Assembly: GCA_964629225.1 (NCBI GenBank)
Contig: CAZVQC010000006.1
Coordinates: 1-50,623, forward strand
Length of the DNA stretch: 50,623 bases
Direction: 5' to 3'
DNA from: an uncultured Ruminococcus sp.
GTDB lineage: Bacteria; Bacillota; Clostridia; Oscillospirales; CAG-272
Numbering within the stretch: the stretch's first letter is position 1; each line of letters opens with the position of its first letter. The position numbers were made by a program, and so were the translations under genes. Below the pieces are notes generated by a model. It was given only the letters and a program-made list of their open reading frames with translations, searched no databases and had not been told where the DNA came from. This document shows positions 1,270-44,172 of this stretch, one piece after another.

Positions 1270-1292
1270 GTTTTGCATGGAAGGAGTAGCAT

Positions 1293-1913: not shown

Positions 1914-2180
1914 ACTGAATGGAAACGGGAGTCGAGTATTATCTGTCGGAGATCCATCATTTTGCCGCATAGGGATATGAGGTATTTGCGTTTGAATACA
2001 GCGGCTATGTCGGAAGCTCCGTGTGGATTTTCGTATGAGGGAGAAAAAGAGACGCTGTTGGCAGATTAAGTTGATAATAAGAAATTTTTGAGAGGCTTGT
2101 TTTATGCAATGTATGATGAACTGCCAACTTCAAAACCGAAATAAAGAGAAACAAATAATTTGCGGTTTACGGAGGAATTT

Positions 2181-2846: not shown

Positions 2847-3128
2847 CAGTTTTCAGTTTTGTTGGGATAAGGTGGCAATTCCGATTTAGCGAACAGACAT
2901 GCATGGTTTCACTTGCACCGAAACGGTTTTATTTTTTTGAGTGAAACCATTTGAAGCCGTATCATTTTGATCAATTCTTGCCAAAAAACTACGGAGTGCA
3001 AAGCACTCCGTAGTTTTTTGATTGCGGAAGACCTGTGCCGACCTCCGAGTTATGAGACCGACGGGCGCTATGTAGCTGTCGGACCGAATTAGCGGGCGGT
3101 CGTGCCGACTGTGGCATGGCTTCATCCA

Positions 3129-15818: not shown

Positions 15819-15903
15819 TGGTGCGGACGAAGGGATTTGAACCCTAACACCGAAAGGTACCGGATCCTAAATCCGGCGCGTCTGCCAGTTCCGCCACGTC
15901 CGC
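15819..15903 (-). tRNA. tRNA-Leu (anticodon TAG)
   Basis: 85 nt. GCGGACG/CGTCCGC acceptor stem; anticodon stem-loop CCGGA-TTTAGGA-TCCGG; long variable arm; GGTTCAAATCC T-loop; encoded CCA. Confidence 0.85.
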
Positions 15904-19394: not shown

Positions 19395-19643
19395 CAAACA
19401 ATATATCCGTATAATATAGTTGCAAGAGTCTCAAAGGAGGATACAGGCTCTTCTTTGTCTCAAGATAAACAGAGGTATCCTCGGTCGGGGAAGATCCCCG
19501 ACAACGGCTTCACCTGCACGTCAATGAAGTGCGAAGCACGCCTTTATTTATTATTTTATCATAATTCTATTCGCAAGTCAAGTAAAACAAGCCGCAGTCC
19601 CGGTACTGCGGATACGGAAATATTTCCGAGAGGAGGAGAGAGC

Positions 19644-20012
19644 ATGGCAGAGCACACAACTGCCGATTACAGAACGGTTGCAGACAGCGGCGGCACAAGA
19701 TACCGATTCTACTGTCAGGTGTCGGGAGCGTTTGCCTGCGCAACGAAGCCCTATCCCGGAGAGGATGCCGAGGCGGAACTTCGGGATGCATGGGAGAGCG
19801 AGGGCAAAAACCACTTCAACCTTTGTCACCGATGCGGAAGGTGGGTGGTGGATGCGGTGTACAACCCGGAGGTGTTCGAGTGTACCGACTGCGCCACCTT
19901 TGAGCATGAGACGAGGTATTGCAAGTCCTGCGGCAAAAGGGTGGATGCGGATGTGCGATTTTGCCCGTTCTGCAAGAGCAGGCTCCATTACGAAGGGGGT
20001 GAGGCATTATGA
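19644..20012 (+). CDS. small zinc-ribbon protein
   Basis: 122 aa with ATG after GAGAGGAGGAGAG. Carries cysteine pairs CHRCG...CTDC and CKSCG...CPFC. Confidence 0.6.
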   Translation: MAEHTTADYRTVADSGGTRYRFYCQVSGAFACATKPYPGEDAEAELRDAWESEGKNHFNLCHRCGRWVVDAVYNPEVFECTDCATFEHETRYCKSCGKRVDADVRFCPFCKSRLHYEGGEAL

Positions 20013-20305
20013 CGGTGAAGGCCAAGTGGGAACAGCTTGAAAGATACGGCTTCGGCCCCAACGTGATGAAGCGTACCAGGGTGTGCCCGTCCTGCGGAAG
20101 GATGGTGACGAACACCTGCAGCTCCTGCCCCGATTGCGGAATGCGCCTTATGAAAAAGACCCTGTGGGACAGGTACAGAGAGCGGCATATGTGCTGTGAC
20201 AGATGCGGCACGGTGCTGGCGGTGGATTCAAGATACTGCCCCCATTGCGGAAGAGCACTCTACGTGAAAAAGGCTCTTCGCTCCGAAAAGAAAAGCAATG
20301 CGTAA
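20009..20305 (+). CDS. small double-zinc-ribbon protein
   Basis: 98 aa with ATGA overlap onto the previous gene. Two CxxC..CxxC ribbons (CPSCG..CSSCPDCG; CDRCG..CPHCG). Confidence 0.6.
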   Translation: MTVKAKWEQLERYGFGPNVMKRTRVCPSCGRMVTNTCSSCPDCGMRLMKKTLWDRYRERHMCCDRCGTVLAVDSRYCPHCGRALYVKKALRSEKKSNA

Positions 20306-20339
20306 CGAATCGAAGAACGATCTGAAGGAGGATCAAAGA

Positions 20340-26054: not shown

Positions 26055-26276
26055 ATACATGGCACTGCGTTTTCCAAAGTGTCAAAGGAAGACCGCTGCC
26101 GTGATCCGGACGGAATGCCCTCTGTCGAAGGGACGGGGTGAGAGACCCGGCTCTTCAACGGGGCTTAGGCTTCGATATGCGTTTTGAAAATAATTCCCCG
26201 ACACGGTCTGCGTTTTGTGATATCGCTAACGGACGTGGGGATAAATAACAGTGAAACGGACAAGGAGGAACACAAA

Positions 26277-29200
26277 ATGAAAACAAAGAGACCGATACGG
26301 TTTGTCAGCATCCTTCTCACCTTAATAATGGTGATCGGTGTGCTGCCACTGTCGGCGCTCTCGACCCTTGCTGCCGGCATAAGTTATGCCGATGAGCCCA
26401 ACTGGGTCTTGGTAGGTACCGACAGCAGTGCGAGCGCCGAGGAGAATTTGAAGAGTCTTACGACCTTGCTGACGGACGAGAGCGGCTCCGGTGCCAACTA
26501 CACCGGCGACACTTTGTACGTCAGACTTGAAAAAGATATCGCAGTCGATTTCAAGAGAGTTGTCAACAGCTTTGCCTCGGAGACCAACGGAGGCAACATG
26601 AACATTGCGGTAGTCGGCAAGAAGGTGCTTGATCTTAACGGACACACCGTCAAGTCAAAAATGATGCTTGGCGACATCGACGACGAATGGTACGATCCCT
26701 ACAGAGGCACTTTTCTCCTCGTATACGGCGACCTTACCATAGTTGACTCCAAGGGCGGCGGCGAGATGAAGTCTGATATGCAGATACAAAATGTCCGTCC
26801 GGAGGAAGTCTACCACTACGACCTGTTCCACGTAATGGACGGAGGAGAGCTGACCGTCAATGCGCCCGGCTCGAAATTCACAAGCGGTCGCTCGCAGGAA
26901 TACTATGATGACAGCGACTACCATATCAGAAATCACTGGTACCGCAGTCAGTCAAACGGCTCCCCGGTCGACGTTCACTCCGGCGGTAAGCTGACCGTTG
27001 CGGGAGGAACTTTCAACGGCAGAGGATACTCCTTTGACAGACGTAAGCATGACTATACAAGATTTGACTGTGCGGCTATTCTTGCGGAGAAAAACTCCAC
27101 GGTCTATATCATCGACGGTAACTTCTACGGCAGAGGCGGAGCCGATGCGCTGAACATATCGAACGATGCGGACATAACGGTAGAGTCCGGTGTTTTCGAC
27201 GTTTTCAAGGTGGACCGTCTTGCCGAAATGAAACACGACGCAGGCACGATGAATATAGTCGACGGTTGGTACGGAGACGTGGGTCTTCCCGAAAGAGTGA
27301 AAACTCAGCTTGCCCTCAAGGGCTCCGCTGTGGAGATAGTAAAGAACGGTCACGATGTTACGGGTGACGAGCTTAGCGACAGCAGCCTTGTCACGGACCG
27401 AAGCACTGCAAAGATCACCGTCCGTCCCACGGGCGGAAGCAACAATTTGGACAGCCGTGTGAGCATCGTCTCCGATAACGGTGTTTCCAGTATCAATCCC
27501 AATACCGTCAGCGGATCGGACACTTACGTGGTGAACGCCGAGTATAAGAACCCCTATTTCTCAAGGACGGCGGCGGAATTCTCCGAGTCAAACTACCGTC
27601 CTCGGAACAAGGATATCGGCAAAAACAGCGATGAATACTACCTGACATGGACCTTCACTCTTCGCGATACGGACGGCTCCAAGGTCGCCGATCTTGCCAA
27701 GGTCACGACAGTGGGAACTCAGACCTCCGTCAGCGTGGACCTTATTGCGGAATACGGCGCCTCAAAGTGGAGAAATCTGAGTACCGGCGACTATAAGATC
27801 CGTTTGGAGATCACCGAGTGCTGGAAGGGTGATCACACCTACAAGAGCACCTGGAGAAACGAGATGGGACTCAACCTCAGTGACAATTCACTGCTCACCT
27901 ATCTCTCCGGCATTACGGACTTCAAGTTTGACTTCAACGTAGTACATAACAAGGATCTCTACTACGGCGATACCCAGTATCTGTCATTTGAACTTGACTA
28001 CTACACGGTGAATGACCTTAACGAGATCAGAGATTCCTACAACAACTACTACGGCGGTTTCAGTATCATGGTCTCATATACCGTCGAATCCTACGATCCG
28101 AAGGGCAACAACTACGTGACAAATACGGATCCGAAGCCCATAGCAAGCACGATAACCGCCGCTGTTAACGACGGTGCGGGCCCGAAGGTCATAACAGCCA
28201 ATATATACATTCCGAGATTCGACGATTCCACCCGCAAGATAGTGGGATACGACGTTCTTACCACGAGAAAGAATTTCCTGCTTCTGCCGACGATGAGCAA
28301 GTGCCTTGACAGCGATGCGGAGACCGTGGGATTCCATAAGCCCGTATCATTGACACATACCGACAGTTACGTGAAGGTCGATACCGCAGAGGACGTCTGG
28401 GGTGCGCCTTTGGCAGACAGCGGTACGTTCTCATGGCAGTGGTATTCCGTCTACGACCACGATATCGGTGCGGACGTGGATATCCACGGCGACTCCTCCC
28501 CCTACAGCAAGTACACCATAGCGGCGGAAGGCAACAGTTACAAGATATCGAGGGACGGAACGTACCGTCTTGCATTCAGCTACGTTCCGAACAACGGCGG
28601 TGTTCCGGAGGAGTTCGTATCGGTGCCCATCGATATCTATGCCTCCAACAGTCAGGAACTTAAGATAGCGACCCTCAGCGGCAGCGAGACCGTACGTCCC
28701 ACGTTGGACGAACTCGGAAGATCGCCTTTGAGACTTGACCTCGGAGAGGGAAGCTGGGGTACGGTCGAATCGGTTACTCTTTCAATAAAGGGACGTCCCA
28801 CACAGGTGGCACATTCTTCACCCATTGAAGGCTCGTACTGCTTCTCAGCCGCAGCAAGGGAGGGCTACTACCTTTTCTACCTGAATGATTTTCCGAGCAT
28901 ACAGGACGCTATTGCCGACGGATGTGCAGGCGGTGAATACACGTTCCGTGCCACGATTCAGGGTAAAGACATCTACGGCTACAAATATAAAACATCTTCA
29001 AACGATCTCACGGTAACGTTCGAGCAAGAGGCGGAGGGCTACGGCCTTATCGTCAACGGAGAGTACCTCGGCAGAGGATGGTCGACTGAAGAGGAAGCAA
29101 AGGCACAGGTCATCCCCCTCTTCATCAACAGTAAGAGCCCCGAAATTACTTTACAGGTGGCATATTATCCCGAAAGTGCCACATTCGATCCCAATAACAG

Positions 29201-31892
29201 TTACACTTCATATTCCTGGTACGATTCCGGTTGTCCTTTCCTCAAAAGGGTCAGCGGAGGCAATACCGATACGTATCAAATGACCATATTAAGGCCCGGT
29301 GTCGGTATTATGAGTGTATATCACGTCGGTGAGTGGATATACTATAAGATCTGTGTTCCCGTCACGGAGATTCAGCTTACAATGCCGAACTATCAGAACT
29401 ACATAGGAACGGAATATTCCGCTATCAAACCCGTAAACGTGAGCCTTGTAGCGGAATGCGGCAAAAGGACGTCCGAGTCAGGCTCTTATGCAAGCGTTTT
29501 GCTCCAGGATGGTTATGAGCCGTATTTCTGGGAAAACGGAACGAATTACGTCAGCGGCAAGAAGGTCGCCGCAAACGATCTTGGCGTTATCAATTATCAA
29601 TTGCACCTTCCCGAATGGCAGTGCTTCCCGGTCGAGGAAGTGAGAGAAGGCAGATACATGGTGGATCTCGGCAGAGTCGCCGTCACAGTCATCCGCAGCG
29701 ACGGCACGAGCGAGACCTTGTCCGCCGAAGCGAGAAATGCATACATGAACTGGGATAAGGATTTCTGTTGCAGTGACGATTCTTACAATGATTCCACTAC
29801 TTACATGGGATTCAAGATAACCGAGGACGTGTTCGTAAAGGAAGAGAGCGCAACTTACATCGACCTTGTCACCATTAATACCACCGAGCCGGGCGTGGGC
29901 GACCCCATCAACGAGGGTATCAAGATCTACAGAGATGACGGCTTTGAGTGGACTCAGCTCGGCTATACCTGCAAGGCGGGTGACGTTTCGACGCTTACGG
30001 ACGTCAAGACCGAGAAAGGCAAGGATATAATATTCGTCTATTCAAGTACAGTCAGCAAAGCCACCGTCGAAACAGCGGGTGAGCACTACACAAATGCAAG
30101 CGGGGCTAAAGCCGAGAGCGGAAAGTCCTGGGCGTACAGCTCATTTTTGAACGGCACGTATGAAAACGGAACGTATTTCCACGAGCTTTCACTGAGTACG
30201 AACAAGGACCTCGGCACCGACGGCAAGAAATATTACTTTGCTCCCGATGTGAAAGTAGTACTGAACGGCCATATCCTTGATTTTGAGAACCTTGTACGGT
30301 ACGATGCGAGAAATGGCACAAGCTCCATCGGTCTGGACTATTTCTTTGATGTAGGCGACGTCATTACCGTTTCCGAGATCGATATTGACGGCATAGTACC
30401 CTATCAGGGGGATCTGCCCGCCACAGCCGATGATGCAACGCTTTTCGCAAAGTATTATGACGGAACGGAGGACAGCGGCAAGGTTGAGATCCGCTCCATT
30501 GAGTGGTTCGTAGATGCCAACAACAACAGCGTATTCGACGACGGAGAGGGTGTCAAAGCGAGGTTCTGGGGCGACGGCACTTACAAGCCGGAGGACAGCA
30601 CTCTCTGGTGGGACGGAACATTCCTTCCCGGCGTTGAATACAGCGCTAAGGTACAATTCGGAAGCAGTGCGGCAGCCCTCAGGTTTGCATCCGACCTTGC
30701 GGTGGACTGCGGAGGAGGCGAACCCGTATTTGATACGGCAACGTCATTCACGGTCAAATTCGCAGGTGACTTCACAATAAGAAAAGTATCCATTAAGACC
30801 GCCGAGGGTGCAGACGCGGCATACCCATCCGGCCGTGACCCGTTGGCACTTGCAAATGCAAGCGTGGCATACAACATAATAAGCATCGGTGTCTTTAAGC
30901 AGCAAGACAATCCGGACGTTGCAGCGGATTCCAACGTCCACGCCTTCTACGCACCGGAAGGAAATCACATTTCCGATACTTTGACCGGCGGCAAGTATTT
31001 CTACGAGTTCTCCATCTCTTGGAAGGATACCGACTACGTACTTGACAGCGAGGCAACGGTTCTTGTCAACGGCAAGGATTACGGCGAGGTATTCGCTCCG
31101 AACAGAAACGAGATAATCGTTGAAAGATCCAAGTATTCGCTGTACTGCTACTACTGCTTCTCGGTACCCAAGACCGGTGCGGACGTTACCGTCAACGTGA
31201 CGGGAGCATCCGGCGGCAAGGTGAATGCACAAAAGACGGTACAGCTCATTGAGAGCGGTTACAGCGAGGCGGCATATGAGAGTGTGATCGCCGCCGACGG
31301 TACGAGTTGCGTTATTTCGGGCGTTCCCGACGGCACGTACAAGGTGAAGGTGATGGCAGCGGGCTATGTTACCGCCGAGACTACGGTGACGATCAACGGC
31401 TCCGATGCCACCGTGAACGTGACTTTGAGGACCGTTTCCACAACCGCAGCGGTGAAGGGAACTGTCTACAGCAAGGGCAGTGCCGCGGATCCGGTCACTC
31501 TGAGACTCACCTTGGTGGGCAAAAGTGAGCCGTCATACGAGGTGGTAGTTACCGGAAACAAGGCTTCCTACTCCATCGGAAACGTTGAGAACGGCACCTA
31601 CGTTCTCACCGCAACCAAGAACGGTCACTCGGACTACAGTATCATGGTAACCGTGGACGGTACGGACCTGACACAGAACATCACCCTGTCACTTCCCGGC
31701 AGCCTTATGGGAGACGTGGACGGAGACGGCAGGATAACCAACAAGGACCTGCTCCTCATGAGACGTTACCTCCTTATGGTAGTGGGAGAGAGTGAGACCT
31801 TCTGTTTTGACAATGCAGACCTTGACTACGACGGCAGGATAACCAACAAAGACCTTCTCAAGCTCCGCAAGATAATAATGGGAGTTGAGTAA
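26277..31892 (+). CDS. giant secreted dockerin-bearing protein, tandem paralog of 20340-25979
   Basis: 1871 aa from the ATG after AAGGAGGA. Signal peptide MKTKRPIRFVSILLTLIMVIGVLPLSA. Shares motifs with the upstream gene across its full length (W.LVGTDS, YVRLE.DI, DLNGHT.K.K, LTIVDSKG, SGVFDVFKVD, IEWFVDAN). The C-terminal 242 aa are identical. Confidence 0.85.
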   Translation: MKTKRPIRFVSILLTLIMVIGVLPLSALSTLAAGISYADEPNWVLVGTDSSASAEENLKSLTTLLTDESGSGANYTGDTLYVRLEKDIAVDFKRVVNSFASETNGGNMNIAVVGKKVLDLNGHTVKSKMMLGDIDDEWYDPYRGTFLLVYGDLTIVDSKGGGEMKSDMQIQNVRPEEVYHYDLFHVMDGGELTVNAPGSKFTSGRSQEYYDDSDYHIRNHWYRSQSNGSPVDVHSGGKLTVAGGTFNGRGYSFDRRKHDYTRFDCAAILAEKNSTVYIIDGNFYGRGGADALNISNDADITVESGVFDVFKVDRLAEMKHDAGTMNIVDGWYGDVGLPERVKTQLALKGSAVEIVKNGHDVTGDELSDSSLVTDRSTAKITVRPTGGSNNLDSRVSIVSDNGVSSINPNTVSGSDTYVVNAEYKNPYFSRTAAEFSESNYRPRNKDIGKNSDEYYLTWTFTLRDTDGSKVADLAKVTTVGTQTSVSVDLIAEYGASKWRNLSTGDYKIRLEITECWKGDHTYKSTWRNEMGLNLSDNSLLTYLSGITDFKFDFNVVHNKDLYYGDTQYLSFELDYYTVNDLNEIRDSYNNYYGGFSIMVSYTVESYDPKGNNYVTNTDPKPIASTITAAVNDGAGPKVITANIYIPRFDDSTRKIVGYDVLTTRKNFLLLPTMSKCLDSDAETVGFHKPVSLTHTDSYVKVDTAEDVWGAPLADSGTFSWQWYSVYDHDIGADVDIHGDSSPYSKYTIAAEGNSYKISRDGTYRLAFSYVPNNGGVPEEFVSVPIDIYASNSQELKIATLSGSETVRPTLDELGRSPLRLDLGEGSWGTVESVTLSIKGRPTQVAHSSPIEGSYCFSAAAREGYYLFYLNDFPSIQDAIADGCAGGEYTFRATIQGKDIYGYKYKTSSNDLTVTFEQEAEGYGLIVNGEYLGRGWSTEEEAKAQVIPLFINSKSPEITLQVAYYPESATFDPNNSYTSYSWYDSGCPFLKRVSGGNTDTYQMTILRPGVGIMSVYHVGEWIYYKICVPVTEIQLTMPNYQNYIGTEYSAIKPVNVSLVAECGKRTSESGSYASVLLQDGYEPYFWENGTNYVSGKKVAANDLGVINYQLHLPEWQCFPVEEVREGRYMVDLGRVAVTVIRSDGTSETLSAEARNAYMNWDKDFCCSDDSYNDSTTYMGFKITEDVFVKEESATYIDLVTINTTEPGVGDPINEGIKIYRDDGFEWTQLGYTCKAGDVSTLTDVKTEKGKDIIFVYSSTVSKATVETAGEHYTNASGAKAESGKSWAYSSFLNGTYENGTYFHELSLSTNKDLGTDGKKYYFAPDVKVVLNGHILDFENLVRYDARNGTSSIGLDYFFDVGDVITVSEIDIDGIVPYQGDLPATADDATLFAKYYDGTEDSGKVEIRSIEWFVDANNNSVFDDGEGVKARFWGDGTYKPEDSTLWWDGTFLPGVEYSAKVQFGSSAAALRFASDLAVDCGGGEPVFDTATSFTVKFAGDFTIRKVSIKTAEGADAAYPSGRDPLALANASVAYNIISIGVFKQQDNPDVAADSNVHAFYAPEGNHISDTLTGGKYFYEFSISWKDTDYVLDSEATVLVNGKDYGEVFAPNRNEIIVERSKYSLYCYYCFSVPKTGADVTVNVTGASGGKVNAQKTVQLIESGYSEAAYESVIAADGTSCVISGVPDGTYKVKVMAAGYVTAETTVTINGSDATVNVTLRTVSTTAAVKGTVYSKGSAADPVTLRLTLVGKSEPSYEVVVTGNKASYSIGNVENGTYVLTATKNGHSDYSIMVTVDGTDLTQNITLSLPGSLMGDVDGDGRITNKDLLLMRRYLLMVVGESETFCFDNADLDYDGRITNKDLLKLRKIIMGVE

Positions 31893-31967: not shown

Positions 31968-32170
31968 GAATAACTCGGTGAAATGCCGACTACGTTATTC
32001 GGAATAACTCGGTGCAATTAGTTCCGTATCATCCGTGGCGGCTTTCTGAGAGCCGGATACGGCAGTGGAAGTCGGATAGTGTTCACGGGAAAAATATTTT
32101 AATGAAGAAAAAAAGAATTAATTATCATTTTTTCGAAAGAGACTTCAAAAACGGAAGGAGAAGTGATATA

Positions 32171-33088
32171 ATGAAGAAAAGGTATTTTGCCCTTCTTGCC
32201 GTGGCTGTTTTGATGGCGGCTCTGCTCCTTTGCGGATGTGCTTTCGGGAACGGCGACAAAGACGGTATCGGCACCGACGGAGGATCACCATCGACGGAGC
32301 CGGAGGACGTATCCGCCGATGTGGATACGCCGGAAGATGCGCCCGAAGCGGATCCTTCGGAACTTCTTTCGCTGAGGCGGAGGATAGCGGACAGCGGCTC
32401 CTTTGTGGGCATCGCCTATGCGGGCAACGTTGAAAATAGAGACTACGTGGACAATGCCGCATCCTATCTTGAAGGCAGGGTGCTTTTGGAAAAGTATCCT
32501 TTCCTTTCCGACGTGAAGTTCTTCGATAACAAAGGCGAGAACATTTTCGTTCTCGTTCCGAAGAGCGAGAGCGGCAGGATAACTCTCTATTCCGCAGGTA
32601 TTGACGGGGACGGGGAGCTTTCGGTGGACCGTGATACGGAGATCTTTACCGGCGAGCCGGGGGAGGTACTGGTACTCAGGTGCAATGAAAGTGAGAATTT
32701 CTCCAACGTTCTCGTTCGCGTTACCGACGGAGATACCATTCTTGAATTTTATCCCACAGTCTCTCTTGAGGACGGACGCTCGGTGGATCTTCAAAGCGGG
32801 TGCTGCGATCTTACCGAGGACGATATCGGATTTCATGTGGACGAAGGGTATTATCTTATCGGCCTCGTCTACCCAAACGAGGTGAACGTGGAAGGTGAGG
32901 AGCTTTTGTTCCTCGGCGTTGAGGAATTCTGTAACGAGAGGATGCTGGCATACGGACTTGGTTCCGTAGGTGACAGCGGAGAATTTGAAACGGTGAGGCG
33001 GTTCATGGTATCCTACGGAGGCACTTATATGCTGAAGGATAGGGAGTGGACGGTGGTTGAGACCGGCATCTCGGATCTCGAAGAATGA
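32171..33088 (+). CDS. lipoprotein of unknown function
   Basis: 305 aa from the ATG after GGAAGGAGAAG. Signal peptide with lipobox (LLLC-GC), then an acidic Asp/Glu/Pro-rich linker. Confidence 0.55.
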   Translation: MKKRYFALLAVAVLMAALLLCGCAFGNGDKDGIGTDGGSPSTEPEDVSADVDTPEDAPEADPSELLSLRRRIADSGSFVGIAYAGNVENRDYVDNAASYLEGRVLLEKYPFLSDVKFFDNKGENIFVLVPKSESGRITLYSAGIDGDGELSVDRDTEIFTGEPGEVLVLRCNESENFSNVLVRVTDGDTILEFYPTVSLEDGRSVDLQSGCCDLTEDDIGFHVDEGYYLIGLVYPNEVNVEGEELLFLGVEEFCNERMLAYGLGSVGDSGEFETVRRFMVSYGGTYMLKDREWTVVETGISDLEE

Positions 33089-33204: not shown

Positions 33205-34617
33205 ATGGGACTTATTAAAGCAGGTATCGGAGCACTTGGAGGAACACTTGCGGATCAGTGGAAGGAATTTTTCTACTGCGAAGCACTTCCCAAGGACGTT
33301 CTGATGAGAAAGGGCGAGAAGCGGATCAGCGGCCGCTCCTCCAACACAAAAGGAAGCGACAATATCATCACAAGCGGCTCCGGCATCGCCGTTGCAGACG
33401 GTCAGTGCATGATCATCGTTGAGCAGGGAAAAGTAGTTGAGGTATGCGCCGAGCCCGGCGAATTTACATACGATGCCTCCACCGAGCCCTCTATCTTCTC
33501 CGGAAGTCTCGGCAACAGCATCAAGGAGACCTTCAAGACCATCGGAAAGCGTTTCACCTACGGTGGTGACACAGGGAAGGATCAGCGCGTTTACTACTTC
33601 AACACCAAAGAGCTGATAGACAACAAGTTCGGCACTCCCAACCCCATCCCCTTCCGTGTGGTGGACTCTAAGATAGGACTTGATATCGACGTATCCGTCC
33701 GTTGTTCCGGAGTCTACTCCTACAAGATCGCAGACCCGCTCCTCTTCTACACCAACGTGTGCGGCAACGTAAGCGACGAATACAACCGTGAGGAGATCGA
33801 CAGTCAGCTCAAGACCGAGTTCATCAGCGCAATGCAGCCCGCTTTCGGCAAGCTGTCCGATCTTGAACTCCGTCCCAATCAGATAGTCGCTCACAATACG
33901 GAGCTTGAGCAGGCTATGAACGAGGCGCTCTCCGCTAAATGGGGCGAGCTTCGCGGACTCAAGGTAGTCAGCATCGCTCTTGGTTCCGTAACTCTTCCCG
34001 AAGAGGATGCGGAGCTCATCAAGCAGGCTCAGCGCAGCGCTATCATGAGAGATCCCACCATGGCTGCGGCTACTCTCGTGGGCGCACAGGCAGATGCTAT
34101 GAAGGCGGCGGCTTCCAACGAGGCAGGCGCTATGACCGGCTTTATGGGCATGGGAATGGCGATGAATGCCGGCGGTGGCATGAACGCTCAGAATCTCTTC
34201 GCAATGGGACAGCAACAGCAGGTACAGCAGCAGGCTGCAACTCCCGCTCCCGCACAGGATGCATGGAAGTGCTCCTGCGGTGCTACCGCTACCGGCAAAT
34301 TCTGCCCCGAGTGCGGCTCGAAGAAGCCCGAACCTCAGGCGGCAGGTGCTTGGAAGTGCTCTTGCGGTGCCTCCGTTACGGGCAAATTCTGCCCCGAATG
34401 CGGCTCACCGAAGCCTGCGGATGCAGAGGGGTGGACCTGCTCTTGCGGAACTGTGAACAAGGGCAAATTCTGCCAGAACTGCGGCGCTAAAAAGCCTGCA
34501 GGCGTTCCCCAGTACCGTTGCGACAAGTGCGGTTGGGAACCCGAAAAGGGAACTACTCCCCCCAGATTCTGCCCCGAATGCGGTGACCCCTTTGACGGCG
34601 GCGACATAGTAGGCTGA
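33205..34617 (+). CDS. SPFH/band-7-like protein (COG4260, YdjI family) with four C-terminal zinc ribbons
   Basis: N-terminus MGLIKAGIGALGGTLADQWKEFFYCEAL is typical of the YdjI-like family. A Gly/Met/Gln-rich linker follows, then 4 tandem W.CSCG-x5-GKFCPECG modules. Confidence 0.6.
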   Translation: MGLIKAGIGALGGTLADQWKEFFYCEALPKDVLMRKGEKRISGRSSNTKGSDNIITSGSGIAVADGQCMIIVEQGKVVEVCAEPGEFTYDASTEPSIFSGSLGNSIKETFKTIGKRFTYGGDTGKDQRVYYFNTKELIDNKFGTPNPIPFRVVDSKIGLDIDVSVRCSGVYSYKIADPLLFYTNVCGNVSDEYNREEIDSQLKTEFISAMQPAFGKLSDLELRPNQIVAHNTELEQAMNEALSAKWGELRGLKVVSIALGSVTLPEEDAELIKQAQRSAIMRDPTMAAATLVGAQADAMKAAASNEAGAMTGFMGMGMAMNAGGGMNAQNLFAMGQQQQVQQQAATPAPAQDAWKCSCGATATGKFCPECGSKKPEPQAAGAWKCSCGASVTGKFCPECGSPKPADAEGWTCSCGTVNKGKFCQNCGAKKPAGVPQYRCDKCGWEPEKGTTPPRFCPECGDPFDGGDIVG

Positions 34618-34685
34618 TAAAAAGTAAGTCGAGGAGAGATCCCCGATTCGGGGATCTCTCGCAAAATAAAATACAGGAGAAAATC

Positions 34686-35624
34686 ATGGGACTATTTGAC
34701 AAGAAATATTGCGATGTCTGCGGAGAGAAGATAGGTCTTCTCGGAAACAGAAAACTTGAGGACGGAAACCTTTGCAAAAACTGTGCAAAGAAGCTCTCCC
34801 CTTGGTTCAACGAGCGCCGTCATTCCACCGTGGACGAGATCAAGGCTCAGCTTCAGTACCGTGAGGAGAACAAGCAGAGAGTCGCCTCTTTTCGTACCGG
34901 CCGTGCCTTCGGTGAGAGCTGGAAGGTGTTCTTCGACGATGCAAACCGTTGCTTTACCGTCACAAGAGCCTCATCCCCCAATACCGAGGATAACCCGGAT
35001 ATCATCGATTACAGCGCTATTACCGGATGTCACCTCAATATCGACGAGGACAAGGACGAGATCTACCGTGAGAACGCAGAAGGTAACAGAGAGAGCTATA
35101 ACCCGCCCCGCTACAATTATTCCTACGATTTCGATCTTATCATCAACGTTGCCAATCCCTATTTTGACGAGATCAAAATAAGACTCAACAGCCTCAGCGT
35201 TGAATACGCACCCGAACCGGCCGTACGGATATCCCTCTTCGGTCAGTCTCTTACCGGCAACGGCGTCAACCCGGAGAATTGCTCCGAATACTGCCGCTAC
35301 CGCAACATGGGTCAAGAGATCTGTGCGGAGCTTGACCGTGCTCGCGGCGTGAATACCGGCTACGGTCAGCAGGTACAGAACTTCGGTCAGCAACCTCAGA
35401 ATTTCGGTCAGCAGACACAGAGCTTCACCGCTCCCGCAGCGGCTGCAGTGGGTACTTGGGTCTGCGGAAGCTGCGGCACAAACAACAGCGGCAAATTCTG
35501 CGAGGGCTGCGGAAGTCCGAGACCTCAGGCGGCACCTGCAAGATGTCCCGCTTGCGGTTTTGCTCCCGCTCCCGGTCAGGCTATGCCCAAATTCTGCCCC
35601 GAATGCGGCAAGCAGATACTTTGA
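34686..35624 (+). CDS. DUF4428-type N-terminal zinc-ribbon protein with C-terminal zinc ribbons
   Basis: N-terminus MGLFDKKYCDVCGEKIGLLGNRKLEDGNLCKNCAKKLSPWF, then a Gln-rich linker (GQQVQNFGQQPQNFGQQTQSF), then two GKFC.ECG ribbons. Confidence 0.6.
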   Translation: MGLFDKKYCDVCGEKIGLLGNRKLEDGNLCKNCAKKLSPWFNERRHSTVDEIKAQLQYREENKQRVASFRTGRAFGESWKVFFDDANRCFTVTRASSPNTEDNPDIIDYSAITGCHLNIDEDKDEIYRENAEGNRESYNPPRYNYSYDFDLIINVANPYFDEIKIRLNSLSVEYAPEPAVRISLFGQSLTGNGVNPENCSEYCRYRNMGQEICAELDRARGVNTGYGQQVQNFGQQPQNFGQQTQSFTAPAAAAVGTWVCGSCGTNNSGKFCEGCGSPRPQAAPARCPACGFAPAPGQAMPKFCPECGKQIL

Positions 35625-35631
35625 AATATCG

Positions 35632-36114
35632 ATGACAAAGATCATCAGATCGGCGGTGATATCCATGTCGATAGTCTCGGTGATTTTGGGGCTGTTCGGC
35701 TGTGCCGGGACGTCGGAGTCTCCAAAGCACAGTCTGTCGGAGCTTACCTCGGTATCCGTCGGTGAGACCGGCTCTGATCAAACCGGCGGCTACTCCTTTT
35801 GGATCCGCCTTGAAGACGAGGGGTGGGCCTTTGAAGGTGATTGCAGTATCGGTGACGGGAACGTTTCCGTTATGGACGCAAGGGTGACCTCGGAGGAGCG
35901 TGAAGAACTGTTTTCGGCACTTGAAGAAAACGGTGCTGTCCTCTATGCGGAGAATTACAAGCAGCGGAAGAATTCCTCCCGCGCTTCGGACGGTGATTCC
36001 TACGGCTTTGTACTCACCTTTTCGAACGGCGATCAATGCATCACCTACGAACGTCAGGAGTATCTCGAACGGTACTTTTTCCGACTTGCGGAAAAGTACG
36101 GAAATATCAAATAA
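35632..36114 (+). CDS. small lipoprotein of unknown function
   Basis: The ATG lies 8 nt after the upstream stop. Signal peptide and lipobox ILGLFGC-AG. Alternative start at 35665. Confidence 0.45.
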   Translation: MTKIIRSAVISMSIVSVILGLFGCAGTSESPKHSLSELTSVSVGETGSDQTGGYSFWIRLEDEGWAFEGDCSIGDGNVSVMDARVTSEEREELFSALEENGAVLYAENYKQRKNSSRASDGDSYGFVLTFSNGDQCITYERQEYLERYFFRLAEKYGNIK

Positions 36115-36140
36115 CTTGAAACCAGAAACGGAGGAACATT

Positions 36141-36890
36141 ATGGCTAACAAATGCGCTATCTGCGGAGCTGAAGTCAACGTATTTCAGGCTCAAAAACTG
36201 AGTGACGGCAATTACATCTGCCGCAAAAATTGCAGAGCAAAGGGACTTAAGGTCTTTGACTACGTTCACGGAACTCTGTCCCAGGTCAACGCTCACATCG
36301 CACAGGTGGAGCGGGGAACGAAACTCTGGGAGCATTACTTCGTTCCCAAAATGAGTGAGAAGGACAAGGAAAAGAAGCTCGTTCAACCGGGCGGACATTT
36401 CTACGTTGCCGCAGACATCGGTCTTATGGCCTACGTTCAGAACGACTATAAGTTCTTCCTTTTCGGCAAGACCACCCGTGCCTGCGTCTACCGTATCGCG
36501 GACCTGCGTGACTACGACTATGAGGAGCGTGAGGTAAAGAACGGCGATACCGTTGAGAAGAAGTCCTACATTCATGTGGTATTCACCAACACCGAGGGAC
36601 TTTTCGACATCACCGAGCCCATCACGAGCACCTCTTATACAACTTTTGTGAAATACTTCAACAAGCTGTTCGGCATCGAGAAGACTCTCGGTAACATGAA
36701 AAACACCGTGAAGAATCAGATGAATGCCGCAAAGAGCGTTGCCGACGGCTTCAAAGCGGTCCTTTCCGGTGACGGAGATGCCGTTGAGAAAGCGGCAGAA
36801 GCAAGTGCGGACCTTGACAAAGCGCAATACGGCGATCGCACGGAACTTATAAGAAAGGCTGACGAGGCACTTGCGGCTTTCAATGGCTGA
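36141..36890 (+). CDS. DUF4428-like zinc-ribbon protein (paralog of the N-domain of 34686-35624)
   Basis: N-terminus MANKCAICGAEVNVFQAQKLSDGNYICRKNC has the same C.ICG...KL.DG..IC..C architecture. RBS GGAGGAAC. Confidence 0.55.
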   Translation: MANKCAICGAEVNVFQAQKLSDGNYICRKNCRAKGLKVFDYVHGTLSQVNAHIAQVERGTKLWEHYFVPKMSEKDKEKKLVQPGGHFYVAADIGLMAYVQNDYKFFLFGKTTRACVYRIADLRDYDYEEREVKNGDTVEKKSYIHVVFTNTEGLFDITEPITSTSYTTFVKYFNKLFGIEKTLGNMKNTVKNQMNAAKSVADGFKAVLSGDGDAVEKAAEASADLDKAQYGDRTELIRKADEALAAFNG

Positions 36891-36923
36891 CATTGGCAAA
36901 AGACACGAAAGGAGTGATCTTTT

Positions 36924-38018
36924 TTGAACACATTGCAAGAATACAAGTGTCCCTGCTGTGGCGGTGCGATAGCATTTGACAGCAGTCTCCAGAAGATGAA
37001 GTGTCCCTATTGCGAGACCGAATTCGACATGGAGACTCTTTCGGGCTACGACTCTGTCCTTCAGGGCGAAAGAGCGGACGATATGCACTGGGAGAATACC
37101 GCCGGTGCAGAATGGGAAAGCGGTGAGGCGGACGGTCTTCGCTCCTACGTCTGCAAGTCTTGCGGAGGCGAGATAGTCGGCGACGAGACCACCGGCGCCA
37201 CATCCTGTCCCTTCTGCGGAAATCCGGTGGTTATGATGGGGCAGTTTTCGGGAAGTCTCAAGCCCGACTACGTCGTCCCCTTCAAGTTTGACAAAAAGGC
37301 GGCAAAGGCGGGGCTCATGAAGCACCTTTCCGGAAAGCGCCTTCTTCCCAAGGTATTCAAGGATCAGAATCACATTGATGAGATAAAGGGAGTCTACGTT
37401 CCTTTTTGGCTCTTTGACTGCGACGTGAGCGCTCAGGTGCGCTACCGTGCCACAAGGGTCAGGACCTGGAGCGACAGTGACTACAACTACACCGAGACAC
37501 AGCACTTTGCAGTCTTCAGGGGCGGCAATATCGGTTTTGCCGGCGTTCCCGTGGACGGCTCCACAAAGATGGCGGACGATCTTATGGAATCCATTGAGCC
37601 TTTCAATTTTAATGAGGCTGTGGACTTTCAGACCGCTTACCTTGCGGGATATCTTGCGGATAAGTACGACGTGAGTGCGGAGGAGAGCATAGACCGTGCC
37701 AACGCCCGTGTTAAAAGCTCCACGGAGGTGGCTTTTGCCTCCACCGTACAGGGCTACGCTTCCGTTCAGACCGAAAGCAGCAACGTTCAGTTCTACGGCG
37801 GCAAGGCGAAGTACGCTCTCTACCCGGTGTGGCTCCTCAATACCACCTGGAACGGGAACAAGTACGTTTTCGCCATGAACGGTCAGACGGGAAAGTTCGT
37901 CGGTGACTTGCCGGTTGACAAGGGTGCCGCCACAAGGTGGACTCTCGGTCTTACTGCTGCCATCGGTGTCGGTGCTTACGTAGCGGTGTTTCTTTTGCAC
38001 CTGCTCGGAATTCTGTAA
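36924..38018 (+). CDS. double zinc-ribbon membrane protein (YdjG-like)
   Basis: N-terminal CPCCG..CPYC and CKSCG..CPFCG ribbons, a ~250-aa conserved domain, and a C-terminal TM helix (LTAAIGVGAYVAVFLLHLLGIL). Confidence 0.55.
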   Translation: MNTLQEYKCPCCGGAIAFDSSLQKMKCPYCETEFDMETLSGYDSVLQGERADDMHWENTAGAEWESGEADGLRSYVCKSCGGEIVGDETTGATSCPFCGNPVVMMGQFSGSLKPDYVVPFKFDKKAAKAGLMKHLSGKRLLPKVFKDQNHIDEIKGVYVPFWLFDCDVSAQVRYRATRVRTWSDSDYNYTETQHFAVFRGGNIGFAGVPVDGSTKMADDLMESIEPFNFNEAVDFQTAYLAGYLADKYDVSAEESIDRANARVKSSTEVAFASTVQGYASVQTESSNVQFYGGKAKYALYPVWLLNTTWNGNKYVFAMNGQTGKFVGDLPVDKGAATRWTLGLTAAIGVGAYVAVFLLHLLGIL

Positions 38019-38032
38019 GGAGGGGCTAAGTA

Positions 38033-38842
38033 ATGAAAAAGAAAATACTGTCATTTCTGCTTCTTGCAGTGATCTGCTTCGTTACCGTTTTGCCGATATC
38101 GGCTGCGGACGGCGGCTTTGCGGATGAGTACTATCGCCTCGGAGACAGCGCAGACCTGCTCTCCGATACGGAGGAGTCGGCTCTTCTTTCAAAGCTTGAT
38201 GAGATTAGTGTCCGTCAGAGCATGGACGTGGTGATCATCACCACCGACAGCATCGGGGACAAGAGCCCCATGGAGTATGCGGACGATATCTACGATGAAT
38301 GCAACTTCGGTTACGGAAGCAGCCGCGACGGTCTTCTCCTTCTTATCAGCATGGAGAACAATGACTGGTACATTTCCACCTGCGGCTACGGCATCTACGC
38401 TTTTACCGATGCGGGCATTCAGTACATAGGAAATGAGATCAAGGGCGATCTTTCAAACGGTAATTATTACTCCGCATTCGTAAGGTACATTGGTCTTTGC
38501 GACAACTTCATCACTCAGGCGAAATCCGGCGAACCCTTCGACCGAAGCAGTCTTCCGAAGGAGCCTCTGTCTCTGATCTGGATACCCGTGTCTGCCGTCA
38601 TCGGATTCGTTATCGCTCTTAACGCGGTAGGTTCCATGAAGAGAAAACTGAAGACCGTTCGCTTCCAGCCTACGGCTAACAGCTACGTCAAGCCCGGAAG
38701 CATGGTGATCACTCAGAACAGCGATCTGTTCCTCTACAACACCGTAACCAAAACGGCAAGACCCAAAGACAACGATTCCGGAAGCAGCACGCACACTTCA
38801 TCCTCCGGCACCACACACGGCGGTGGCGGCGGAAAATTCTAG
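38033..38842 (+). CDS. TPM-domain protein (YgcG/YdjH-like) with C-terminal TM helix and Gly-rich tail
   Basis: Signal peptide, then a TPM-domain pattern (DSADLLSDTEESALLSKLDEISVRQSMDVVIITTDS...DGLLLLISMENNDWYISTCGYG), a TM helix and a GGGGGKF terminus. Confidence 0.7.
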   Translation: MKKKILSFLLLAVICFVTVLPISAADGGFADEYYRLGDSADLLSDTEESALLSKLDEISVRQSMDVVIITTDSIGDKSPMEYADDIYDECNFGYGSSRDGLLLLISMENNDWYISTCGYGIYAFTDAGIQYIGNEIKGDLSNGNYYSAFVRYIGLCDNFITQAKSGEPFDRSSLPKEPLSLIWIPVSAVIGFVIALNAVGSMKRKLKTVRFQPTANSYVKPGSMVITQNSDLFLYNTVTKTARPKDNDSGSSTHTSSSGTTHGGGGGKF

Positions 38843-38900: not shown

Positions 38901-39343
38901 ATGAAAAAGGCATTACTCGTTATTATGACGTTCTTAATGGTATTCTCTGTCACAGCTTGCGGCGGAAACATGGCAACAACGGAGACGGCATGGATATCAA
39001 GGTAGATCCCATTCAAACAGTGGCAGAGACCTACGGTCTGGACTTGGCATCCACCGCAGAGCAGTCAATGAGCAGCGAGCGCGCGACCAAAGATCAACTC
39101 AGCGCTCTCAAGCACGATTTCTTCAAGGATACCATGATGTTTGAAAGAACCGAGTTTGCAGATCTGACTTATGACGATATTAAAGCTCAACTCGGTGTTG
39201 ATGCATCATACTACTACTTTGAAGACGCTCTCGTTGAAAAGCAGTGCTTCGTATGGCAGGCAGACGGCAACGATGCCGCTAAGATCTTGATCAGCTTCAC
39301 AAACGGCATACTCTACGGTCTCGGCAGTGCCAATATCGGCTGA
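38901..39343 (+). pseudogene. frameshifted small lipoprotein gene
   Basis: The ATG at 38901 encodes a perfect lipoprotein signal peptide (MKKALLVIMTFLMVFSVTAC-GGN) that hits a stop at 39003-39005. The 128-aa body (ORF 38957-39343) is in the -1 frame. Confidence 0.5.
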
Positions 39344-39415: not shown

Positions 39416-39985
39416 ATGAGTATTTTTGACAAACTGAAAAGCGCGGCAGGTCAGGCTGTCACATCGGCAGTCCAGTCTGTCGGCAACAAGAGAGAGACTT
39501 TCACATTTGCATCTCTGCCTGAGAACCTTGCCGAAATGCAGTCCCTTCCCGAGGCAAGCCTTGACACACCTTACAAGACTGCGGCTCTTACAGTCCTTGC
39601 GCTCTGCGCTTACGCTGCAGACAAGGGCATCGGCACGGAGATGCTGAACTGGCTTCGCGGTCCCCGTCCTCTTAACGGTCAGGAGATCTCATTCCTTAAC
39701 GACCGCTTCCGTGACGGCAAGACCTATCTGCCTTTCACCTATTTTGCAGGTTCAACACCCGACAACAACTACACGCCCACACAGCCCTATACTGTGGTGG
39801 TTGAGAGCAATCACACCTCCGATGACGAGGCGGGATACATGAAACTGTTCATCCCCTGCGGCGGTGCAGACGATCCGAGACCCATCAAACTCCGTCAGCG
39901 CGGCAGCGACGGCAAGTGGTTCCTTTGGGAACAGTATCTCCTCACCGGAGTACGCACTCCGAAGGCTGCTGACCCTTGGGCATAA
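39416..39985 (+). CDS. hypothetical protein
   Basis: 189 aa. RBS AAGGAGGAA. N-terminus MSIFDKLKSAAGQ resembles the MGLFDK-type N-termini of neighbouring genes. Confidence 0.5.
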   Translation: MSIFDKLKSAAGQAVTSAVQSVGNKRETFTFASLPENLAEMQSLPEASLDTPYKTAALTVLALCAYAADKGIGTEMLNWLRGPRPLNGQEISFLNDRFRDGKTYLPFTYFAGSTPDNNYTPTQPYTVVVESNHTSDDEAGYMKLFIPCGGADDPRPIKLRQRGSDGKWFLWEQYLLTGVRTPKAADPWA

Positions 39986-39997
39986 GGAGGTCATGTC

Positions 39998-40402
39998 ATG
40001 GATCATATCGGAAAATGGAAACTTAAGGGCATGAACGTCCCCACGGAAAACGGAATGGTATTCTGCACCAAGGAGACCATCCCGGACGAATTCAAAGAAA
40101 CTTTTGAAGAGACGGAACTCACAGAACTCGAATTCCTTGAGGACGGCACGTACAACATGATACAAAAGGTTGAGGGCGAGCTTGCCGAGCAGGCAAAGGC
40201 GGAAGGAATGGAGATCCGCGATGACGGCTATGTTGTGGCTCTCAGTGCAAAATGGGAAGACCGTAACGGCACCGTCTATTATGACACCGGTGCTGAAGGT
40301 ACCATCTTGGATGAGGAGATCGATCCCTTTGAACCTCTTCAGTTCAGCGAGGACGGTTACCTGATTTACAACTACGGTATGTGCTTTTTCGAGCGCGCGT
40401 GA
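39998..40402 (+). CDS. acidic hypothetical protein
   Basis: 134 aa. RBS AAGGAGG. Confidence 0.5.
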   Translation: MDHIGKWKLKGMNVPTENGMVFCTKETIPDEFKETFEETELTELEFLEDGTYNMIQKVEGELAEQAKAEGMEIRDDGYVVALSAKWEDRNGTVYYDTGAEGTILDEEIDPFEPLQFSEDGYLIYNYGMCFFERA

Positions 40403-40700
40403 TCTGTTTTTGAGATAGTTTTTTTCGGGGAGGGCTTTTTCCCAAAAAGCCCTCCCCGACTCCTTCCCAAAAAAACTTGGGGGTGTTTTTTATTGGGGAG
40501 GACTTTTTTGAAAAAAGTCCTCCCCAATCCCCTCCCAAAAAAACTTTTGGGAAGGCTTTGGCGGAGGGAACGAGCATTCGGGAAGAGGGATCTGTGCGGC
40601 GTCCCCGCTTCATCGTTTTGTAAGGTTCTGTCTCCCGGCGGGCAAAGCGGGCATAGATCGCTTTGCGGCGCCGGGGGCGGTGGACGTCACCTTTTTGACA
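40403..40700. repeat. composite intergenic repeat: two ~65-bp palindromic hairpin units plus a truncated copy of the ~155-bp repeat
   Basis: Hairpins GGGAGGGCTTTTTCCCAAAAAGCCCTCCCC and GGGGAGGACTTTTTTGAAAAAAGTCCTCCCC, each followed by CCCAAAAAAACTTTGGG. Positions 40568-40690 are homologous to 3161-3285 and 44050-44170. Confidence 0.55.
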
Positions 40701-42848: not shown

Positions 42849-43523
42849 ATGAAAAAAGTCAGCAGGATACTTTGGGGCATAGTTCTCGTGGTTTTGGGAC
42901 TGCTCTTTATTTTGAAGATCTGTAACGTTTTTACTTTCGATATTTTTTTTGACGGCTGGTGGACTCTGTTCATCATCGTTCCTTCCGTCATCGGACTTAT
43001 CTGCGAGAGGGACAAGACTTGGAATTTTATCTGCCTTGCGGTAGGTATCATTTTTCTCCTTTGCGCTCGTTCCGTGCTTGACTGGGGAATGATGTGGAAG
43101 CTGGTTATTCCCGTTGTGGCGGTCATTGTGGGTATCAGAATGATATTTGCCGACCTCTTCAAAAAGAAGTCGGTACCCGCTCCCGCAGTATCGGGAAATG
43201 CTCCCAAGGGGAATATGAGTGCGTCCTTCGGCTCGGAGAAGTATTGCTATGACGGACAGGTCTTTGAGGGAGCGGATCTCAGCGCTTCCTTCGGGGCAGT
43301 GGCTTGTGATGCTCGCAAGGCCATCATCAACAGGGACTGCGTCATCAATGCAAATGCCAAATTCGGTGCGGTGGAGATACTTCTTCCCGATAACGTGAAC
43401 GTGGTCGTGAGGTCGGAGGCCGCCTTCGGCGGAGTTGAAAACAAGAGACCGGTGACCACTGAGCATCCCTTCACGATCACCGTCAATGCTAATGCAAACT
43501 TCGGCGGGATCGAGATAAAGTAG
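42849..43523 (+). CDS. LiaF-like membrane protein with C-terminal toastrack (DUF2154/DUF4097-like) domain
   Basis: Four TM helices, then repeated beta-strand units (ASFGSEKY, ASFGAVACD, AKFGAVEIL, AAFGGVEN, ANFGGIEIK). Confidence 0.5.
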   Translation: MKKVSRILWGIVLVVLGLLFILKICNVFTFDIFFDGWWTLFIIVPSVIGLICERDKTWNFICLAVGIIFLLCARSVLDWGMMWKLVIPVVAVIVGIRMIFADLFKKKSVPAPAVSGNAPKGNMSASFGSEKYCYDGQVFEGADLSASFGAVACDARKAIINRDCVINANAKFGAVEILLPDNVNVVVRSEAAFGGVENKRPVTTEHPFTITVNANANFGGIEIK

Positions 43524-43789: not shown

Positions 43790-44172
43790 TAGGTTTTTCG
43801 GGGGATTCTTTTGGGAGGACTTTTATCAAAAACGTCCTCCCAAAACCCTTCTCAAAAAAACTTTGGGATGTTTTTTGCAGGGTTCTTTTGCCTCGGGTGG
43901 CTACAGAGTGCTTGCAGATCCCGCAAGCGCTTTTGCCGCGAGTTACTTTTGCGCAGCGGGAAAATCATTGAGGCGTTGAGGAGCATTATCGGGAACCCCT
44001 CACGCTGCGCAAAACCTTTGCAGCCGCCGCGCGTCCCGCTTCCCGGCGATGGGAGCAAGCATTCGGGAAGCGGGATCTGTGCGGCGCCCCTGCTTCATCT
44101 GTTTGTAAGGCTTCATCCCCCGGCGGCAAAGCGGACGAAGGTCGCTTTGCAACGCCGTGGGCGGTATGAGAC
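43790..44172. repeat. composite intergenic repeat copy 3 (one hairpin unit plus a full ~155-bp repeat)
   Basis: Hairpin GGGAGGACTTTTATCAAAAACGTCCTCCC at ~43809-43838. Positions 44021-44170 are ~88% identical to 3129-3285. Confidence 0.55.

Follow-up and report, generated by a model that had tools for sequence, protein, structure and literature searches.

The stretch of DNA analysed here, called the window, is the forward strand of contig CAZVQC010000006.1 from position 1 to position 50,623 (assembly GCA_964629225.1, an uncultured Ruminococcus sp.). Between 33205 and 38842 it carries six consecutive plus-strand open reading frames (ORFs), which a first, sequence-only reading had delimited correctly and had taken for an envelope module resembling the YdjG, YdjH and YdjI proteins of Bacillus subtilis, without PspA. 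Three of them form the core of the cluster: an SPFH protein resembling YdjI, also named SamI (33205..34617), a zinc-ribbon membrane protein resembling YdjG, or SamG (36924..38018), and a TPM-domain protein resembling YdjH, or SamH (38033..38842). All three are encoded on the plus strand and were characterized by Pfam searches, hydropathy and motif scans. The three corresponding B. subtilis architectures were described by Ravi et al. (PMC11237479) and also elsewhere (PMC8581546). Work on YdjGHI (SamGHI) has until now been confined to B. subtilis, where the proteins were considered as companions of PspA.

The SPFH protein matches the Pfam family Band_7_1 (PF13421) with 69 bits over residues 52-275, for a cut-off of 24 bits, and the generic Band_7 model more weakly, with 26.7 bits. 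From its N- to its C-terminus it comprises an invariant N-terminal segment, the Band_7_1 domain, a low-complexity linker rich in Met, Gly and Gln (residues ~300-350) and four zinc ribbons (354-464) of the CxxC...CxxC type, which give double-zinc-ribbon matches in Pfam. Transmembrane (TM) segments were screened by the Kyte-Doolittle hydropathy of 19-mers, with a threshold of at least 1.6; since no 19-mer of the SPFH protein reaches this value, it is predicted to be soluble. Band_7_1 and C-terminal zinc ribbons are shared with the COG4260 proteins, a family whose description names a C-terminal Zn-ribbon. However, the clade of the window protein differs from other COG4260 proteins by its long invariant N-terminal extension, its Met/Gly/Gln-rich linker and its array of four ribbons. 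Thousands of homologues with 83-90% identity are present in gut metagenomes, and across families the clade retains 63-90% identity, an unusually high conservation. In Ralstonia, homologues 29% identical over residues 52-306 carry the depositor annotation 'ydjI'. When the window was compared with relatives' gene neighbourhoods (designated by labels such as L001, L009 or L016), the first 25 residues of the SPFH protein and its terminal ribbon were found to be almost invariant (window versus L001, L009, L014 and L012). Identities between the window and L001 or L009 amount to 84-85% for the SPFH protein, 74-78% for the YdjG-like protein, 45-59% for the TPM protein and 60% for the first DUF4428 protein described below.

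The YdjI protein of B. subtilis is likewise soluble. It assembles into foci where the membrane is fluid and serves as the membrane link of PspA (PMC8581546); it has one zinc finger, whereas the tail of the window protein has four zinc ribbons. The cluster also resembles the classical SPFH operons (HflK/C-FtsH, stomatin/flotillin-NfeD and YqiK/YuaG-YuaF), in which an SPFH scaffold, presumed to organise microdomains, is encoded with small membrane partners. Unlike the classical proteins, the window SPFH protein has neither a TM anchor nor a long coiled coil, and its partners are TPM and zinc-ribbon proteins instead of NfeD, a protease or a YuaF-type protein.

The YdjG-like protein begins with two zinc ribbons made of four CxxC pairs (C9/C12/C27/C30 and C77/C80/C95/C98) and ends with a single TM anchor (346-364) at its extreme C-terminus, a feature kept in an Enterococcus homologue. 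In Pfam it matches zinc-ribbon models only, the best of which, Zn_Ribbon_TF (TF_Zn_Ribbon), is the match reported for B. subtilis YdjG; this model recognizes 11 of 15 members of the YdjG-like family, with a best E-value of 4.5e-8. For YdjG, a central domain related to YpeB and NTF2-like proteins has been claimed. The central domain of the window protein, of about 230 residues, has no Pfam or PDB profile match outside the zinc ribbons, and its AF2 model reached a predicted local distance difference test (pLDDT) score of only 41.5, because none of the homologues used was less than 76% identical. Searches of PDB sequences and profiles with the SPFH and YdjG-like proteins likewise returned zinc ribbons and nothing further, and an NCBIfam scan of the cluster proteins gave no meaningful match. 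A minus-strand ORF of 666 codons (36054-38054) overlaps the YdjG-like gene and the gene preceding it; it has no homology support and is uncalled in related contigs, and we have taken it as spurious.

The TPM protein matches PF04536 with 103 bits over residues 38-157. It is predicted to be a bitopic membrane protein and has a signal or TM segment at 5-23, a TM segment at 181-199 and a low-complexity tail rich in Ser and Gly with a GGGGGKF end. The domain calls made in the sequence-only reading were therefore right for SPFH and TPM, as they are for the DUF4428 proteins below, and the three proteins together reproduce the published YdjI, YdjG and YdjH architectures (PMC11237479, PMC8581546). This likeness was established by Pfam families and architecture, from published descriptions. 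With the exception of the central YdjG domain, membership in the three families appears supported feature by feature.

The conservation of the cluster was then considered. One genome per GTDB species was scanned, and at least 596 stretches were found to encode relatives; the best 80 were kept with 10-kb flanks, their ORFs were matched to the window proteins by phmmer, and 64 species loci were informative. We observed that the SPFH, YdjG-like and TPM genes are located on one strand in 58 of these 64 loci; the order of the conserved unit is I-G-H. Carriers of this triad belong to the Oscillospiraceae, the Lachnospiraceae (Oliverpabstia intestinalis) and the Peptococcaceae, and include Streptococcus sp. 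oral taxon 058; Enterococcus gallinarum (PLSDB) has it too, where the YdjG-like protein aligns along its entire length with 32% identity (E 1e-69) and the TPM protein was found with an E-value of 2e-12. The triad is old within the Bacillota and conserved across Clostridia and Lactobacillales; it is highly conserved and has syntenic contexts in the core genome.

The arrangement around the triad varies. In L001-L004, where the SPFH protein is 84% identical to that of the window, the genes for the SPFH protein, a 364-residue protein and the TPM protein are directly adjacent. L009-L011, L014-L015 and L110-L113 have the order SPFH, DUF4428, YdjG-like and TPM, followed in some by a DUF6935 gene, and L005-L008, independent assemblies of the window species, reproduce the window gene order from the SPFH gene, cut by a contig end, to the gene after TPM. 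A DUF4428 protein of either type described below accompanies the triad in 13 of the 58 loci. The sequence-only reading had treated the six genes as one module. For the triad the clustering is not accidental, but the three middle genes turn out to lie in a variable slot, which most species leave empty. The conserved unit is the three-gene triad, not a six-gene module. Two more distant arrangements were also seen. In Monoglobus pectinilyticus (L097, 5951-8203), the partner of a related SPFH protein (43% identical) is a TIM44-like domain protein, found in place of the YdjG-like and TPM proteins. L012 (6046-14762) is a distant variant of the cluster in which the SPFH protein is 63% identical, the TPM protein is much longer (449 residues) and DUF6935 is encoded upstream.

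PspA was sought in several ways. Pfam detected no PspA/IM30 domain in about 35 ORFs of the window, and no PspA was found by phmmer in six-frame translations of the window and of 95 related loci, which together represent 1.47 Mb and also served for the survey of the slot. The probe was an E. coli PspA sequence, used after a score of 166 bits on PF04012 had confirmed its family membership. None of the 95 loci contains pspA within about 10 kb of the triad, nor does PF04012 appear in the precomputed annotations of related loci. The absence of PspA noted in the first reading is therefore confirmed for the window and extends to every related locus examined.

Compared with B. subtilis pspA-ydjGHI (samGHI), the window cluster has the same three protein architectures, co-encoded on one strand. 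It differs by the lack of pspA, by its gene order (G-H-I in B. subtilis, I-[slot]-G-H here) and by the presence of an accessory slot containing DUF4428, lipoprotein and other genes, with DUF6935 downstream. Psp-operon membership thus fails on the defining feature, PspA. The titles and abstracts of the literature on Band_7_1, PF13421 and COG4260 describe no pspA-less I-G-H triad, and a full-text search of the literature mentioning DUF4428 returned nothing on this gene context. The claim that the architecture was undescribed stands insofar as this variant is unreported; nevertheless, the module belongs to the described pspA-ydjGHI/samGHI system and is not a new kind of system.

The slot, that is the interval between the SPFH and YdjG-like genes, is empty in 49 of the 95 loci. 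It holds a single gene of the first DUF4428 type (DUF4428a) in nine and mixed sets of small genes in others, including DUF5640-type lipoproteins and small TM proteins; in L012 it contains a 171-residue TM protein, DUF4428, AIM24, a TM2-domain protein and a 581-residue lipoprotein. The complete block found in the window (DUF4428a, lipoprotein, DUF4428b) was seen again in two further species (L016 and L020), preceded there by DUF3592-like two-TM proteins and a 432-residue zinc-ribbon/TM protein, and in part in L094. The full six-gene order is limited to near relatives and is one filling of a hotspot in a conserved operon.

DUF4428a (34686..35624, plus strand) was analysed by Pfam, an AlphaFold model and alignment of its tail. 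It matches DUF4428 (PF14471) with 63.7 bits, for a cut-off of 27.8 bits, has a C-terminal DZR match and contains no TM segment. Its family comprises at least 6,553 homologous clusters, and it was found in 11 of the 64 species loci. The model, a confident one (mean pLDDT 82.5, from 66 sequences), consists of an N-terminal zinc ribbon, a helix and a PH-like beta-sandwich (~73-175) with a capping helix, and then a disordered Q-rich linker (225-254) followed by two zinc ribbons. The PH-like domain that the sequence-only reading had suggested seeking is thus present in this model.

The tail of DUF4428a aligns with the last two ribbons of the SPFH protein (~50% identity, E ~1e-12), a likeness also visible in the DNA. 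Both tails have the same order, namely a Q-rich linker, a W-x-C-x-C-G-x5-GKFC-x2-CG ribbon and a terminal ribbon, whose loop is longer and whose end reads (K/R)FCPECG, and the zinc-ribbon tail is kept in 20 of 23 DUF4428a homologues from related loci. A phage protein annotated as carrying a SHOCT ('Short C-terminal') domain has a DUF4428a-like fold (E 3.4e-7), as does phrog_888; the similar fold of this SHOCT protein hints that such tails may be exchangeable. Short ORFs of phage contigs from IMG/VR (L098-L109) resemble the SPFH tail in its W-x-C-x-C-G...GKFCPECG ribbon repeats and nowhere else, with 46-54% identity over ~50-110 residues in 10 of the 12 loci. Judging from these matches, the ribbon motif appears to circulate in viral proteins too.

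DUF4428a is followed by a small lipoprotein (35632..36114, plus strand) with an LFGC lipobox and an ambiguous start codon, whose homologues are found in the slot of L016, L020, L040 and L070 and downstream of DUF6935 in L014. The third slot gene encodes DUF4428b (36141..36890, plus strand), studied by Pfam, hhalign and BLASTP, which scores 27.4 bits on DUF4428, just below the cut-off, and has no TM segment. It is made of a zinc ribbon and a helix (1-64), an unrelated beta-rich middle part and a conserved C-terminal helical segment with a GDRTEWI motif. Its family is rare, with 134 representatives, many of them fragments, among 1.84 billion. The two DUF4428 proteins had been called paralogs, which is overstated: the relationship is confined to some 64 N-terminal residues comprising the zinc ribbon and helix (hhalign probability 95.5%, E 1.5e-8; BLASTP E 3e-5). 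In DUF4428a these are fused to the PH-like domain and zinc-ribbon tail, in DUF4428b to a C-terminal part that is unrelated. Other DUF4428 (PF14471) proteins, including homologues of the SNIPE defence nuclease, share this four-Cys zinc ribbon at the N-terminus; unlike these, the window proteins have no nuclease or other effector domain. SNIPE homologues without a predicted TM segment carry DUF4428 or a PH domain at their N-terminus (10.1101/2025.11.03.685801), which by analogy is compatible with a membrane-proximal targeting role for DUF4428.

The cluster extends beyond the six genes. Upstream, a 305-residue lipoprotein (32171..33088, plus strand) has a signal peptide and a Cys-containing lipobox-like LLCGC sequence; it recurs directly upstream of SPFH in L016, L020, L022 and L023, and two genes upstream in L014. 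Downstream of TPM, a small lipoprotein gene (38901..39343, plus strand) is frameshifted, so that its signal peptide and lipobox are read in a different frame from the body. The truncated form was also annotated in four independent assemblies from this species, and intact homologues follow TPM in L009 (139 residues) and L070. Both lipoproteins had been listed among the flanking genes in the first reading, and both were found again. Next come a DUF6935 protein (39416..39985, plus strand; Pfam 3e-63) and, 12 nt further, an acidic protein of 134 residues with no family match (39998..40402, plus strand). DUF6935 is a recurrent neighbour of the triad, upstream or downstream, in 11 of the 64 species loci and also in L012, L014 and L110-L113. 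Homologues of the 134-residue protein were found by phmmer in three of the 64, including L016, and the ORF of 135 codons that follows DUF6935 in L110-L113 resembles it by size and position.

Intergenic gaps between 32171 and 40402 measure 7-116 nt, and no convincing plus-strand terminator was seen before 40,464. The first clear terminator-like site past the cluster consists of tandem GC-rich palindromic hairpins with T-runs (40421..40559, plus strand), which likely mark the 3' end of the transcription unit. A consensus scan, the sole basis of our promoter calls, gave its best sigma-70-like match at 32144..32172 (plus strand; TTCAAA-17-TATAAT with TG), whose end coincides with the start codon of the upstream lipoprotein gene (32171), and a weaker one before the SPFH gene (33057-33086, plus strand). 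The unit therefore probably runs from ~32.1 or 33.2 kb to ~40.4 kb and includes the further lipoproteins, DUF6935 and the 134-residue protein.

Based on these results, we consider it probable that the region encodes a PspA-independent YdjG/YdjH/YdjI (SamG/SamH/SamI) membrane complex with a lineage-specific accessory slot, in a unit extending to ~40.4 kb. If the analogy with B. subtilis holds, the cytoplasmic membrane would contain a platform or sensor built from the TPM and YdjG-like proteins; this platform would recruit the SPFH protein into membrane foci, and the SPFH protein would scaffold and restrain the complex during envelope stress. Slot-encoded proteins would act as lineage-specific accessories. 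The linker-plus-ribbon tail, given its similarity in the two proteins, may be a common address that brings DUF4428a to the platform of the SPFH protein, where its PH-like domain could add a lipid- or peptide-binding surface and DUF4428 could serve as a membrane-proximal targeting module. The function proposed in the first reading, in membrane stress or membrane remodelling, is by the same analogy a reasonable one.

Several points weigh against this view. The homology to B. subtilis YdjG, YdjH and YdjI is drawn from Pfam families, architecture and a third-party 'ydjI' annotation of proteobacterial homologues, and the gene order is I-G-H here and G-H-I in Bacillus. On the NTF2/YpeB-like domain claimed for YdjG, the window protein gives no indication either way, as it has no Pfam or PDB match there and its low-scoring AF2 model is unusable. 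The absence of PspA covers 50.6 kb of an 88.8-kb contig of the source genome and ~20 kb per relative. Finally, the functional statements come wholly from analogy, and the shared address of the tails is suggested by sequence similarity alone.

The limited genomic view leaves room for a split Psp system, in which the triad would recruit a pspA or liaH homologue encoded elsewhere in the genome. Such a situation would overlap with a complex of the SamGHI type and be compatible with it, and it is in line with the role of B. subtilis YdjI in linking PspA to the membrane (PMC8581546) and with the suggestion by Ravi et al. that PspA from another locus may serve abbreviated Band-7 operons (PMC11237479). 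However, the 95 loci without a nearby pspA come from many families, B. subtilis SamGHI phenotypes are independent of PspA (preprint 10.64898/2026.02.06.704340) and the SPFH protein is conserved far beyond what a mere adaptor would need. We regard this possibility as a serious one, although rather unlikely.

Another explanation gives the leading part to the TPM protein. Since its domain lies between a signal/TM segment and a TM segment, it is predicted to face outward, and it might act, as in proteins of the Psb32/TLP18.3 type, as an extracytoplasmic assembly or repair chaperone serving the lipoproteins and small membrane proteins encoded alongside; the SPFH protein would then be a cytoplasmic regulator only. 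The cluster and the slot are indeed rich in lipoproteins and small TM proteins, and chaperone-like assembly roles have been proposed for Band-7 with TPM by Ravi et al. (PMC11237479). Nevertheless, the 49 loci with an empty slot indicate that no slot lipoprotein is obligatory and the NCBIfam Psb32 match is negligible (E 0.048), so that we hold this explanation to be improbable.

An anti-phage or abortive-infection membrane system, with the slot as a hotspot similar to those of defence islands, was also considered. It would account for the variable gene content of the slot, and it recalls the DUF4428 domain of SNIPE nuclease homologues (10.1101/2025.11.03.685801), the DUF4428a-like fold of the phage SHOCT protein and of phrog_888, and the literature that ties PspA to CBASS regulation. 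However, the module contains no effector-type enzyme, PADLOC-DB gave no match for 10 cluster proteins at E <= 0.01, and tblastn found no module relatives in phage records, the viral contigs giving matches to the zinc-ribbon motif only. Together with the high conservation of the triad and its syntenic core-genome contexts, these results make a defence function very unlikely.

That six unrelated hypothetical genes were juxtaposed by chance, as the restriction of the full order to near relatives and a non-conserved LiaF-like neighbour might suggest, is hardly credible: the idea is refuted for the triad and DUF4428a by the recurrence of the triad across bacterial classes, by DUF4428a occupying the same slot in at least 11 species and by the match between its tail and that of the SPFH protein, and it is confirmed only for the LiaF-like gene.

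Beyond the SamGHI-type complex itself, we tentatively put forward a wider proposal, which we think more doubtful than not as a whole. The Q-rich linker and double-zinc-ribbon tail might be a portable tag that docks cytoplasmic modules on a YdjG/YdjH-like platform. The slot might be a lineage-specific cassette site for interchangeable clients or adaptors (PH-like zinc-ribbon proteins, lipoproteins, AIM24, TM2 and DUF3592), and the triad an ancient, PspA-independent and customisable organiser of membrane microdomains in Firmicutes.

Gut Clostridia, streptococci and enterococci commonly carry the triad in a strongly conserved form, without pspA and with its genes in another order. This speaks for the recent claim of an SPFH–SamGH complex able to work independently, and some carriers of the triad, namely Oliverpabstia intestinalis BSM-380-WT-5A, Streptococcus sp. 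oral taxon 058 F0407 and Enterococcus gallinarum K205-4a, are cultured organisms in which this independence could be examined. The cluster also provides a first functional context for three families, DUF4428, DUF6935 and a rare family of ~250 residues. A targeting role is proposed for the zinc-ribbon tails, and no new mechanism or kind of system. These observations should be of relevance to the SPFH, Psp and envelope-stress fields.

The gene at 42849-43523, 4 kb downstream, does encode a LiaF-like protein, with a LiaF-TM and a weak LiaF_C match in Pfam, as the sequence-only reading had it, although the association with the cluster proposed there does not hold. We treat it as a chance neighbour, because no LiaF-like homologue was found near the triad in the 64 informative species loci and because terminator-like repeats, hpf and an opposite-strand phosphoesterase gene separate it from the cluster. 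Palindromic intergenic repeats of ~70 nt (75-77% identity), with an additional repeat of 82 nt (83% identity), lie at 40421-40641 and 43806-44126, where they bracket hpf, the metallophosphoesterase gene, the LiaF-like gene and a tRNA-Gln. They have no Rfam match, the Rfam scan of the window having detected two tRNAs and nothing else; they might represent terminators, REP-like elements or a small RNA that has so far escaped recognition.

Farther to the left, a tyrosine integrase gene (14468-15514, minus strand) adjoins a tRNA-Leu (15819-15903, minus strand), and the GC content drops to 0.42-0.43 in the leftmost part of the window (1-3000); an integrated element may be present left of the tRNA-Leu. 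A location of the cluster itself on a mobile element was considered and is unlikely, the integrase being beyond the tRNA and 17 kb away and the flanks of the cluster being syntenic with relatives. Just upstream of the cluster, two tandem genes (20298-25979 and 26184-31892) encode secreted proteins of ~1,900 residues with the same PEGA, CarboxypepD_reg and dockerin C-terminal arrangement. At this site the syntenic L009 has two small ORFs and a 5'-nucleotidase gene, and the tandem genes therefore look like a lineage-specific insertion or duplication. Finally, a 185-residue protein with C-terminal zinc ribbons (DUF7575 / Zn_Ribbon_1) is encoded at 19455-20012; its homologues are located a few genes upstream of SPFH in L009 and L070, and it may be a further, loosely linked zinc-ribbon partner.

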